DNA of 64,000 bases, from sequence record PP129558. One strand, 5' to 3'. The position numbers and the translations under genes were made by a program. The notes under the pieces are model-generated. The model did no database searches and was not told the origin of the DNA. It saw nothing but the letters and a program-made list of their open reading frames with translations. Of the stretch, positions 1 to 25,249 are shown piece after piece (position 1 is the stretch's first letter; each line of letters starts with the position of its first letter). This DNA comes from Escherichia phage vB_EcoM_01.

Positions 1-236
<236 letters not shown>

Positions 237-682
237 GATAAATAAGTGTTTGTGTGATTTATAATCAGGTGGCCCACCTTGTCGCTATGTTGGCATGAGC
301 CTTGCATAAGTCATTGAATACGAATGATAATTATTCTCATTCGCATGATATTTGGGAATTGTCGCTGCGTGGACCTGACGGCCCGAAAATTCGCGTTAAG
401 CACTTCTTACGTATGCGCCATGATTTTTGCCATATGATATTGATTCTATTAGATATTCTTGCCATGATTGCCATGAAACAGGGTGTCCCGAAATAATCTC
501 TCCCCGTGGATATTTTGGGTTACTTTTTATACAAGAGTGGGGTGTCAAAAATAATCGGTATATATGGGATAATTGATAGGAATCCCCTATGATAATTCGA
601 TTGTAATTCCTTAAGATTGATCGTATGATGTTGGTGATTGATGATTGCCATGAAAGATGGCTAACGATGAGAGGAGATTATC
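237..682 (+). promoter_or_regulatory. Non-coding leader with repeated ATGATTGCCATGAAA-type motifs upstream of the first gene
   Basis: 15-nt motif at 464-478 and 641-655, related copies at 417-438 and 459-470; no ORF with RBS. Confidence 0.35.
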
Positions 683-1057
683 ATGCAAGAGAGTAAAAAT
701 GTTCCGTTGAGTAGTGCAACATTACTTCGCTTCTATAAAGCATGGATTGCCAACTATCCTGCAATGAATCGCACAACGAGTGGCTTATGTGGTTGTCTGG
801 TAGATTATGTAAATGATTTTGTTGGTGAGACACCTAGAGAAGAAGATAGAAAATGGCGTGATCATTTGTTGGACCGTTTGAAATATGAAATGAGGAAACA
901 ATTTACATGTGCAGGGCTGGACTACAATCTTCCGTTCAATGTGGATTGCATGGATTACCTTTCAGAGTGTATAAACTTGGCGTGTCATACCAACACGTTA
1001 CGTCTTCAGTGGGTGAAAGATCGGATTGAAGATGCAAATAATGCTTGCATTGAATAA
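683..1057 (+). CDS. Hypothetical protein; member of 5-copy paralog family (GLCxCL ... GL..PF ... RxxWVKxR)
   Basis: GAGGAG RBS; motifs shared with ORFs at 4886, 8106, 11403, 12708. Confidence 0.5.
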   Translation: MQESKNVPLSSATLLRFYKAWIANYPAMNRTTSGLCGCLVDYVNDFVGETPREEDRKWRDHLLDRLKYEMRKQFTCAGLDYNLPFNVDCMDYLSECINLACHTNTLRLQWVKDRIEDANNACIE

Positions 1058-2703: not shown

Positions 2704-3141
2704 ATGTTNAAAGCTAATGCTGTTTACTGTTTCAAAAGTAAAGCTGCCTGTGAAGCTTTCTCTGTGATCTCGGATGAAAATTTCAAAATGGCAGCTTTGA
2801 TTGAAGGGTCTTGTTTTCGCGTCGAAGATGTTAGTGAATCAGGGTCTGTTTGCTCATTGACTTTATTGGACAGCGGGGATATTATTGAAGCTGGACAGTA
2901 TCCGTTCAGAAGTTGGGAGATATTGTTAGCTCGCGGAGAGCGTAACTTTTTTATGTGCGTGTCTGCGGGGGAAGTTGTGAAAGAAACTAAGGATGTTTCT
3001 GTTTACAATTCTGAATTTATAAGTTATAGTGAGTATCAACATCTGGAAGGCATTGTTGGTCACTTGTTATCTCTGATTGACATTGAATGTGACCTTCCTG
3101 AATCATTGAAAGAAGAGTTGAAAGCATTAGATCTGCTGTAA
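2704..3141 (+). CDS. Hypothetical protein (ambiguous bases near start)
   Basis: ORF; N bases at 2698-2709. Confidence 0.4.
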   Translation: MXKANAVYCFKSKAACEAFSVISDENFKMAALIEGSCFRVEDVSESGSVCSLTLLDSGDIIEAGQYPFRSWEILLARGERNFFMCVSAGEVVKETKDVSVYNSEFISYSEYQHLEGIVGHLLSLIDIECDLPESLKEELKALDLL

Positions 3142-24506: not shown

Positions 24507-25249
24507 TAATCCTCCTCAAGAGTTGAATAAAATTGAAGACCACCGTCCATATCGAAATAAGCAAATGTTAAGTTATTATTGAACACAGATCCAGTATCCA
24601 TATAAACACGATTCGCATTGATAATAGGTGTTTTTACATAAGAGTGTCCATGAAACACATAATCCACACCCATCACAACAGGAAGTTTCATTCCCTCTTT
24701 AGCACAGTCTACCATATCTCTGTCCCACATAAGTGCTTCAGCAAAACGGTTTTCCTGTGTTTTTGTCATCTTCGAAATGTATTCTGGAATATCTGTTACA
24801 GGGAGATATTCCAAAGAAGATGGATACCCACCATGAATAAACGCAAGTTTCATGCCTCTGTAGTTAACAATGAGAACAACAGGTAAATCTTCTGTCATCA
24901 TTGCTAAGGCTGTAGCTCCTTCTTCACCACATTCTTCAAAGACCGTATATCCTCCATTTTGATACCAACACTCGTAGTAGCTACGATCTCCTTCCAGCAT
25001 ACCTTTAATCATCATGTCTTCATGATTGCCACGAATAGCATAGCGATTGTGTTTACGAGTAAATTCTAAAACACAACGAAAGTTTTGCTTTCCACGGTCA
25101 GTAAGATCTCCTAGAGATACAACCACATCTGTATCTCGGATACCTAACTTTGCCTTTCCTTTTTCATACAAATTATAACAACCGTGTAGATCTCCAATTA
25201 TAAAAAGATCTTGATCGCTTTTAACAGTAATTTCTCTGTGTATGATCAC
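24506..25249 (-). CDS. Ser/Thr protein phosphatase (calcineurin-like metallophosphoesterase, PP-lambda type)
   Basis: GDLHGCY, GDLTDRG, GNHE motifs. Confidence 0.75.
   Translation of the reverse strand: MIIHREITVKSDQDLFIIGDLHGCYNLYEKGKAKLGIRDTDVVVSLGDLTDRGKQNFRCVLEFTRKHNRYAIRGNHEDMMIKGMLEGDRSYYECWYQNGGYTVFEECGEEGATALAMMTEDLPVVLIVNYRGMKLAFIHGGYPSSLEYLPVTDIPEYISKMTKTQENRFAEALMWDRDMVDCAKEGMKLPVVMGVDYVFHGHSYVKTPIINANRVYMDTGSVFNNNLTFAYFDMDGGLQFYSTLEED

Follow-up and report, generated by a model that had tools for sequence, protein, structure and literature searches.

Phage DNA does not occupy the first bases of the 64-kb stretch of Escherichia phage vB_EcoM_01 analysed here (record PP129558; called the window below, meaning the whole of that stretch). 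Bases 1-230, to which no strand is assigned, are by direct reading an artificial contig end, as the earlier note had recognised. They consist of poly-C (bases 1-155), followed by adapter and masked N runs, and bases 171-226 read ATACGGCGACCACCGAGATCTACAC-ACCACGTCTG-TCGTCGGCAGCGTCAGATGTG, which we take to be the Illumina P5/i5/Nextera read-1 adapter. The phage sequence begins at 231, and matches to phage records start at 231 or 232. Read-through into adapter produced this junction, which lies near the physical end but does not mark it, and for annotation the first 230 bases (adapter plus poly-C) are to be trimmed.

A megablast search with bases 231-2700 as the query retrieved 117 phage records, the best of which are 97-98% identical across the full query, with KKP 3954 as the top match. 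The records that were checked are Phapecoctavirus (Stephanstirmvirinae), e.g. ESCO25 and Ro121lw, and by this comparison the window is Phapecoctavirus DNA, phAPEC8/ESCO13-like and about 97% identical. In ESCO25 and other records in which the locus is internal, the region forms the right part of a 1.46-kb non-coding stretch. The description of about 440 bp without a convincing gene was found to be sound, since the single open reading frame of at least 60 aa is broken by indels in relatives and most records annotate nothing here. This 64-aa frame (302-496, TTG start) straddles the boundary of the terminal repeat described below, is interrupted in the alignments of relatives by indels of various lengths, and was rejected as coding. 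A terminator scan of 231-1400 found none. An Rfam search of 200-1500 at a permissive threshold gave a snoRNA model inside a gene as its sole match (E = 0.97), and no family in that interval was matched at or near its gathering score.

The first gene to the right, here called gene 1 (683-1057, + strand, 124 aa, PHROG 2510, function unknown), is preceded by the Shine-Dalgarno sequence GAGAGGAG at 669-676, the two together occupying 669-1057. In both Ro121lw and Schickermooser no CDS is annotated between the terminal repeat and gene 1, which opens a tight run of small + strand genes, the first six of which all fall in PHROGs of unknown function. Judged by its gene content, this leftmost operon is probably early. 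Transcriptome or early-promoter mapping for this phage group was not found in the searchable literature.

The direct terminal repeat, its boundary and its palindromes

Genomes of the Stephanstirmvirinae end in direct terminal repeats (DTRs) (PMC12695924), and a terminal repeat of 328 bp has been reported for Schickermooser by Korf et al. (PMC6563267). In the Schickermooser record the first and last 329 nt are identical, and window positions 231-398 (+ strand) align with its positions 162-329 as well as with the DTR of phi92, the last 25 nt of the Schickermooser repeat mapping to the window so that they end at 398. The phi92 record annotates a 343-bp repeat as DTR-L at 1-343 and DTR-R at 148270-148612, and its edges, TTGTTG^AGCC and CGCGTTA^AGCAC (the caret marks the DTR boundary), occupy the same alignment columns as the Schickermooser boundaries. 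For BME3 a terminal repeat of 342 bp was obtained with PhageTerm (PMC12210895). However, BME3 supports the existence and length of the repeat only, not its exact boundary, since its annotated repeat is shifted by 73 nt and a 415-nt piece is duplicated at the end of the record.

Set against these DTRs (343 bp in phi92, 328/329 bp in Schickermooser and 342 bp in BME3), with the inner part of which 231-398 aligns, the window holds one genome end only; it has 168 nt of a repeat of about 329 nt and lacks the 161 nt on the left. Its status as a repeat is given here by homology to relatives, among them one in which the repeat is present at both ends. The right boundary, CGCGTTA^AGCAC at 398^399, is kept in all lineages aligned; the left edge lies outside the contig. 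At least 10 of the listed records (11 with ESCO37) start or stop at a DTR boundary. The left boundary is the record edge in 7 of them, and in Mt1B1_P17, WPEC1 and WPEC2 the record edge is at, or within 1 nt of, the right boundary. On this homology we place the right boundary of the DTR at 398^399, which would put the left physical end 161 nt ahead of the first phage base in the contig. The earlier suggestion that the region is near a physical genome terminus is thus supported by the homology of 231-398 to the inner DTR of Schickermooser and phi92, and the comparison with terminal regions of relatives, which had been proposed as a check, maps their boundaries onto the window; this reading is right but was already known for relatives in the subfamily. 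Annotation should treat the genome as linear, not circularly permuted, with a terminal repeat of about 329 bp, and the contig as starting 161 nt inside it.

Terminase is the enzyme that cuts and packages phage DNA. The best candidate for a terminase cleavage or recognition site in this region is a conserved block across the right DTR boundary (381-405, + strand, GCCCGAAAATTCGCGTTA^AGCACTT), a function suggested by the alignment of three lineages, since AAAAT(T)CGCGTT(A/C)^AGCA is kept in Phapecoctavirus, the phiWec group and Justusliebigvirus. The sequence GTTR^AGC is read at both DTR boundaries. When the contexts of the two boundaries were aligned locally, the score did not differ significantly from shuffles (p = 0.31-0.41), and a common cut-site motif was rejected; the fixed-register GTTR^AGC is left as the only lead.

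The DTR also contains a Fur-box-like palindrome (320-345, no strand). E. coli Fur boxes are represented by GATAATGATAATCATTATC or by the 7-1-7 form TGATAATnATTATCA, and the palindrome core at 325-339 (TGATAATTATTCTCA) agrees with the latter in 13 of 14 positions, being the sole match with one mismatch or fewer to TGATAATnATTATCA in the 64 kb. Scored against the 19-bp consensus, the window site reaches 14-15/19, a level to be read against about 0.47 hits per shuffle of the 64 kb at 15/19 or better (0.43 at exactly 15 and 0.03 at 16). The homologous site in phiWec190 (box 2) has 17/19, as has, in phi92 and ESCO32, a second palindrome (box 1) located about 175 nt upstream in relatives. The palindrome at the window site is kept in all lineages aligned, and it overlaps the promoter-like TTGCAT(302-307)-18-GATAAT(326-331). 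As in E. coli Fur boxes, the consensus match is made up of overlapping hexamer-phased matches on both strands, which overlap promoter-like hexamers. Unlike E. coli Fur boxes, the sites are part of a virulent phage's terminal repeat, and GATAAT also resembles -10 elements. In E. coli, 296-362 had a single match (23 of 25 bases, present in 827 genomes), namely a perfect Fur box that precedes an FTR1 iron permease gene on a plasmid by about 70 nt. A search for Fur boxes in lytic phages gave no relevant report in the searchable literature. Resemblance of this kind points to the palindromes as possible Fur operators, a reading that we consider tentative and, on balance, rather doubtful.

Repeats and promoter-like elements of the unique leader

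The 15-mer ATGATTGCCATGAAA is present in two exact copies on the + strand, at 464-478 and 641-655, just as the earlier note had stated. When up to two mismatches are allowed, the 64 kb has just two further matches, at 25022 and 48313, each with 2 mismatches; shuffled sequences had on average 0.21 matches at this level, and 0 of 100 reached four. A repeat search extends the pair to 20 nt at 90% identity, and by direct reading, with a 2-nt gap, the similarity is TTGCCATGATTGCCATGAAA (459-478) against TTG--ATGATTGCCATGAAA (638-655). The distal copy (459-478, + strand) is a perfect tandem of a 9-mer, TTGCCATGA twice (459-467 and 468-476), followed by AA, and the proximal copy (638-655, + strand) reads TTGATGATTGCCATGAAA. 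Exact TTGCCATGA is found three times in the 64-kb window, at 459, 468 and 645, all in this leader. The related copies that had been pointed out nearby could also be read directly at 417-437 (+ strand), as GCCATGA at 417-423 and the degenerate TTGCCATGA-like TTGCCATATGA at 427-437, with TGCCATATGA at 428-437. These degenerate copies vary among close relatives (ATATGAT is ATATCAT in ESCO25, Schickermooser, DE16 and Ro121c4), and the phiWec group is without them.

The repeat pattern is broader than first described, in that ATGAT, CATGA and TTGCCA are over-represented as well. On the + strand, 231-700 has eight copies of ATGAT, where the rate over the whole window predicts 0.75 (P about 1e-6), and this is the densest ATGAT stretch in the 64 kb; the same interval has 6 CATGA against 0.45 expected and 4 TTGCCA against 0.24 expected. 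The reverse complements ATCAT and TCATG are not enriched in 231-700.

The 15-mers are both found past the right boundary of the DTR, by 66 and 243 nt, in the unique leader (399-682), and are spaced by 177 bp, by direct reading near 17 helical turns. Replication-origin iterons were considered and rejected, the exact copies at 459, 468 and 645 being too few and irregularly spaced; no DnaA-box consensus was seen on reading 231-682.

A sigma-70-type promoter-like site, TTGTAA-17-TATGAT at 601-629 (+ strand), keeps its hexamers and spacing in all three lineages, the homologous sites having the same -35 hexamer and spacing in phiWec190 (with TAAGAT), PsgM04F (TAGGAT) and ESCO32 (TATGAT). It is a candidate for the proximal early promoter of gene 1. 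A second site, TTGCCA-18-AATAAT at 468-497, uses as its -35-like hexamer (468-473) the second TTGCCA of the distal copy. Both sites show sigma-70 hexamers at the 16-18 bp spacing of early promoters, and the hexamers of 601-629 are kept in diverged relatives, those of the other candidates being not so conserved. The count of promoter-like matches, 10 against 5.1 in shuffles (maximum 12), is not significant by itself.

Two G-boxes complete the leader. G-box A (CAGGGTGTCCCGAAATAATC, 479-498, + strand) has a paralogous box, GGGGTGTGTCGAAATAAATC, at a similar position in Justusliebigvirus, and G-box B with its near-invariant block (TGGGGTGTCAAAAATAATCGGTATATATGGGATAATTGATAGG, 538-580, + strand) is the most conserved leader element across the three lineages. 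The pair has the form GGGTGTC-n2/3-AAATAATC, at 481-498 and 540-556, the second being followed by the near-invariant GGTATATATGGGATAATTGATAGG. The region of G-box B includes TATACA-16-AATAAT (528-555) and an extended -10-like TGgGATAAT (565-573), and we infer a promoter role for this block from its sequence. A search with the block gave 175 matches, of which about 126 were in Stephanstirmvirinae-like phage records and the remaining 49 were chance-level Liberibacter matches. The elements conserved throughout the subfamily are the DTR boundary block, the two Fur-like palindromes, the G-box pair and one promoter-like site.

Probable histories of the two copies and predicted mRNA pairing

The two copies differ in their distribution over the alignment. 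It covers three lineages, namely window-type Phapecoctavirus, the phiWec/PsgM04F group and Justusliebigvirus, with 26 sequences at most; scanning IMG/VR and metagenome contigs for the pattern yielded only 3 loci from each source. The proximal 15-mer is unchanged in 13 window-type leaders and is this lineage's form of a conserved motif, ATGnnTGnCATGAAA, of which every lineage with gene 1 has a single copy, placed 33-42 nt ahead of the start codon of that gene. The motif is carried by phiWec181, phiWec190, PsgM04F, EF1-1, ESCO32 and metagenomic relatives, and other lineages have the variants ATGTTTGTCATGAAA, ATGGTTGTCATGAAA and ATGTGTGGCATGAAA. In phi92 and VEcB gene 1 and the ATGnnTGnCATGAAA motif are both absent and the DTR is kept. 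Because ATGnnTGnCATGAAA accompanies gene 1 in all lineages, the proximal element appears to be old and tied to that gene.

The distal copy is lineage-specific and mutable. It is found only in window-type genomes plus EF1-1 and ZCKP1, and only genomes of window type have two exact 15-mers. Unrelated sequence replaces the distal copy in the phiWec group, PsgM04F and Justusliebigvirus, all of which share the DTR boundaries. In Schickermooser the copy reads TTGCCATTA twice, with both G changed to T, and single changes are seen in OBRO01 (T to C) and Ro121c4 (C to T). Since it is both restricted to the window lineage and mutable, the distal copy would have arisen recently within it, through duplication or gene conversion of the same 18-20 nt. 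Elsewhere the -10/ATG segment has been duplicated locally and independently, in the phiWec-type leader (TAAGATGTT...TACGATGTT) and in IMGVR_3300014004 (TCATGAAAC twice), which fits a leader prone to slippage.

Folding together with the alignment predicts an mRNA helix (641-684, + strand) in which 641-649 (AUGAUUGCC) pairs with 676-684 (GAUUAUCAU), so that A683 and U684 of the gene-1 start codon would be buried; an inner hairpin of 647-651 with 657-661 is also predicted. The fold of the window sequence, whose register is shifted by 3 nt from that of the consensus helix, has a minimum free energy of -12.2 kcal/mol (z = -2.83). In an alignment of 11 sequences 90% of cells pair, three of the eight pairs show double changes and the covariation score is above all but 1 of 500 shuffles; in an alternative register 3 nt away 75% of cells also pair. 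Positions 645/680 change stepwise from U:A to U:G to C:G among near-identical genomes, with C:G in Ro121lw. Single-sequence folds of phiWec190, PsgM04F, ESCO32 and Ro121lw were no better than shuffles (z -1.1 to +1.8), and our confidence in the helix model is lowered because the folds from other lineages give this result. That the 5' half of the proximal copy pairs with the start-codon region of gene 1 in the mRNA may be regarded as a speculative model with perhaps a minor share of the probability.

The predicted arrangement can be compared with genes e and soc of T4, in which, as McPheeters et al. reportedly found in 1986, the translation start of long early transcripts is concealed by a hairpin in the mRNA. 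Similarly, the 5' half of the proximal 15-mer is complementary to 9 nt ending in the AU of the start codon. In PsgM04F-/ESCO32-type leaders the -10 hexamer directly abuts the motif (TAnG-ATGnnTGnC-ATGAAA, with hyphens at the junctions), and, as in T4, transcripts from the proximal promoter would lack the arm and read-through transcripts would contain it. The window lineage has a duplication of about 12 nt that separates the -10 hexamer from the motif. Unlike in T4, the -10 hexamer of the window is 11 nt upstream of the arm, so that all transcripts would carry it, and thermodynamic support for the helix is weak outside the window type. We give the idea of ATGnnTGnCATGAAA as an anti-start-codon arm the same guarded, rather doubtful status as the Fur reading, from which it is separate.

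A probable early leader beside the terminal repeat and alternative roles of the repeats

With a probability of roughly 60%, we read 231-682 as the left end of a linear Phapecoctavirus genome, in which the inner part of the DTR is followed by a promoter and leader region and the 15-mers are not terminus signals. After infection, the sigma-70 RNA polymerase of the host would start at promoter-like sites in the DTR or just to the right of it, the best conserved start site being the one at 601-629, and transcription would then proceed rightward through the long run of small genes of unknown function. The proximal 15-mer, situated between the -10 hexamer and the ribosome-binding site of gene 1, would be part of the start of the transcript, and its 5' half could pair with the start-codon region of the gene-1 mRNA. 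The distal duplicate would have landed beside a similar ATGAAA-G-box junction, thereby giving a -35-like TTGCCA to the second promoter-like site.

Such an organisation bears similarities with the left end of T7, which according to Dunn and Studier (1983) reportedly comprises a terminal repeat, short repeat arrays and the host-polymerase early promoters A1-A3. In both, a short DTR is followed in order by non-coding DNA with short repeats, sigma-70-type promoters (here predicted) and small early genes on one strand. The two are without sequence relationship, the window phage being a 150-kb myovirus, and in place of the 12-copy heptamer array of T7 its leader has 2-5 copies of a 9-mer.

The earlier note had proposed that the repeats act as protein-binding sites, and one version of this idea survives as an alternative, namely that the 15-mers are operators of a phage early or middle regulator, or of a host regulator, which would shut off or modulate early transcription, possibly by looping over the 177 bp. 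The identity of the two copies and the strict conservation of the proximal one in the 13 window-type leaders are consistent with operators, as are the overlap of the distal copy with a -35-like hexamer, the position of the proximal copy just downstream of the -10 hexamer at 624-629, and a spacing of about 17 helical turns, which suits a looping regulator. However, the motif has no dyad symmetry, the pair is absent from other lineages, and the third-position-like conservation, with positions 4, 5 and 8 free, fits RNA pairing at least equally well; we know of no named operator that the 15-mer matches. We consider an operator role unlikely.

Slightly less probable still is that the repeat is a neutral by-product of slippage or duplication in a fast-evolving AT-rich leader. 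The two tandem units of the distal copy have changed together in Schickermooser, as slippage or conversion would have it, and the duplications in the phiWec-type leader and IMGVR_3300014004 show the same tendency. This is difficult to reconcile with the proximal element, which is kept in three lineages whose flanks have diverged beyond alignment, and with the enrichment of ATGAT/CATGA on one strand only. Neutral duplication is a plausible account of the distal copy alone.

The packaging-protein version of the binding-site proposal, in which the small subunit of terminase, or else a different protein of packaging or end processing, would bind the 15-mers or TTGCCATGA repeats, fared worse, and we regard it as improbable. 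The repeats lie within 66-260 nt of the right DTR boundary, are strongly over-represented and strand-specific, and have a precedent in T7, where short repeat arrays immediately inside each terminal repeat are said, following Dunn and Studier (1983), to have a suspected role in concatemer processing. Yet both copies are outside the DTR, and the conservation among relatives with the same termini that recognition repeats should show was not found: the distal copy is gone or altered in relatives that keep the DTR boundaries and mutates even in close ones, and the proximal copy tracks gene 1 and not the DTR, as phi92 and VEcB illustrate. The blocks at the DTR boundaries are far better conserved than the repeats and, on that comparison, are better packaging candidates than the 15-mers. 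The idea of the repeats as terminus or packaging sites is thus not supported.

Least probable is that the repeats are starts of tiny leader-peptide uORFs, MIAMKQGVPK (464-496) and MIAMKDG (641-664); both copies do open with ATG followed by a short open frame, and the motif is in frame with gene 1 in phiWec-type and Justusliebigvirus-type leaders. Against this, both ATGs of the distal copy are replaced by ATT in Schickermooser, variation across lineages falls on the first and second positions of codons and spares the third (the opposite of a coding pattern), residues after MK are not conserved, and in each lineage a strong Shine-Dalgarno sequence precedes the annotated start of gene 1 itself. 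With the ATG lost and the variation of a non-coding kind, these peptides were rejected.

Overall, what 231-682 presents is probably an early leader of an ordinary kind, though neatly structured, beside a known DTR. Its map, consisting of the boundary block, the Fur-like boxes, the G-box pair, the promoter-like site and ATGnnTGnCATGAAA, provides targets for work on phAPEC8-like therapeutic phages. If ATGnnTGnCATGAAA is indeed an anti-start-codon arm, translation of gene 1 would depend on the promoter that made the transcript. Only the Fur-like boxes might alter current thinking, for if they are real a lytic phage would be reading or manipulating the iron regulation of its host from its terminal repeat. 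As functional Fur operators they would either make the onset of transcription in a virulent E. coli phage dependent on the iron status of the host or, with four boxes per genome multiplied by replication, titrate Fur and so switch on iron uptake by the host.

Edges of the terminal repeat and quality of the records

The sequence GTTR|AGC, with the bar marking the repeat edge, is common to both edges of the direct terminal repeat (DTR) in Schickermooser (edge sequences L004 and L003) and in phi92 (L015 and L014), and corresponds to window positions 395-402. The edges read GTTG|AGCA and GTTA|AGCA in Schickermooser and GTTG|AGCC and GTTA|AGCA in phi92. GTTR|AGC may be a motif at which the terminase cuts both edges. 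When the wider contexts of the two DTR boundaries were compared by local alignment, the similarity was not significant (p ~0.3-0.4).

In the BME3 record (PP239276.1, ends L033 and L034) the positions equivalent to phi92 1-415 are present twice at one end, 861 nt apart, and the feature annotated as DTR-L is displaced by 73 nt from the DTR of phi92; the duplicated end and the shifted feature look like an assembly or annotation artefact. Short N runs in the window itself (227-230, 2699-2712 and others) break the junction between adapter and phage sequence as well as at least one coding region (the ORFs at 2639-2767 and 2704-3141 contain X residues), and presumably represent masking or low-quality bases of the source contig. 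Several near-identical genomes in the sequence-search match lists were deposited as Campylobacter, Acinetobacter, Pseudomonas or Klebsiella phages. For what is a lineage of E. coli phages, such labels either claim a very broad host range or name the wrong host.

Fur-box-like palindromes within the repeat

Two palindromes resembling Fur boxes, matching up to 17 of the 19 consensus positions, lie within the terminal repeat and are kept in Phapecoctavirus, the phiWec group and Justusliebigvirus. The window copy is at 320-345, and a second box is found in relatives at 72-96 of L003 (Schickermooser), 74-92 of L014 (phi92) and 1091-1109 of locus L011. The palindrome at 320-345 agrees in 23 of 25 bases with a perfect Fur box that precedes an FTR1 iron permease gene on a plasmid.

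Sequence flanking the repeat, gene 1 and its leader

Upstream of the DTR and outside the window, ESCO25 has a strikingly A+C-rich stretch with runs of CAACAAACAA... (L001 3000-3640), which carries no annotated gene. This stretch is the part of the 1.46-kb intergenic region that, at the right end of the genome, comes before the DTR. The gene 1 family (window 683-1057) differs among relatives in the number of its tandem paralogous copies, which ranges from 0 to 3, with two in ESCO25 (L001 4453-5155), three in phiWec181 (L006 1903-3008) and none in phi92 and VEcB, where the gene is reduced to a 3' remnant.

Within the gene 1 leader, a block of ~43 nt at 538-580 (GGGGTGTCAAAAATAATCGGTATATATGGGATAATTGATAGG) shows almost no variation subfamily-wide (~126 records), while its flanks diverge. 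On sequence comparison, this conservation is greater than a plain promoter would need.
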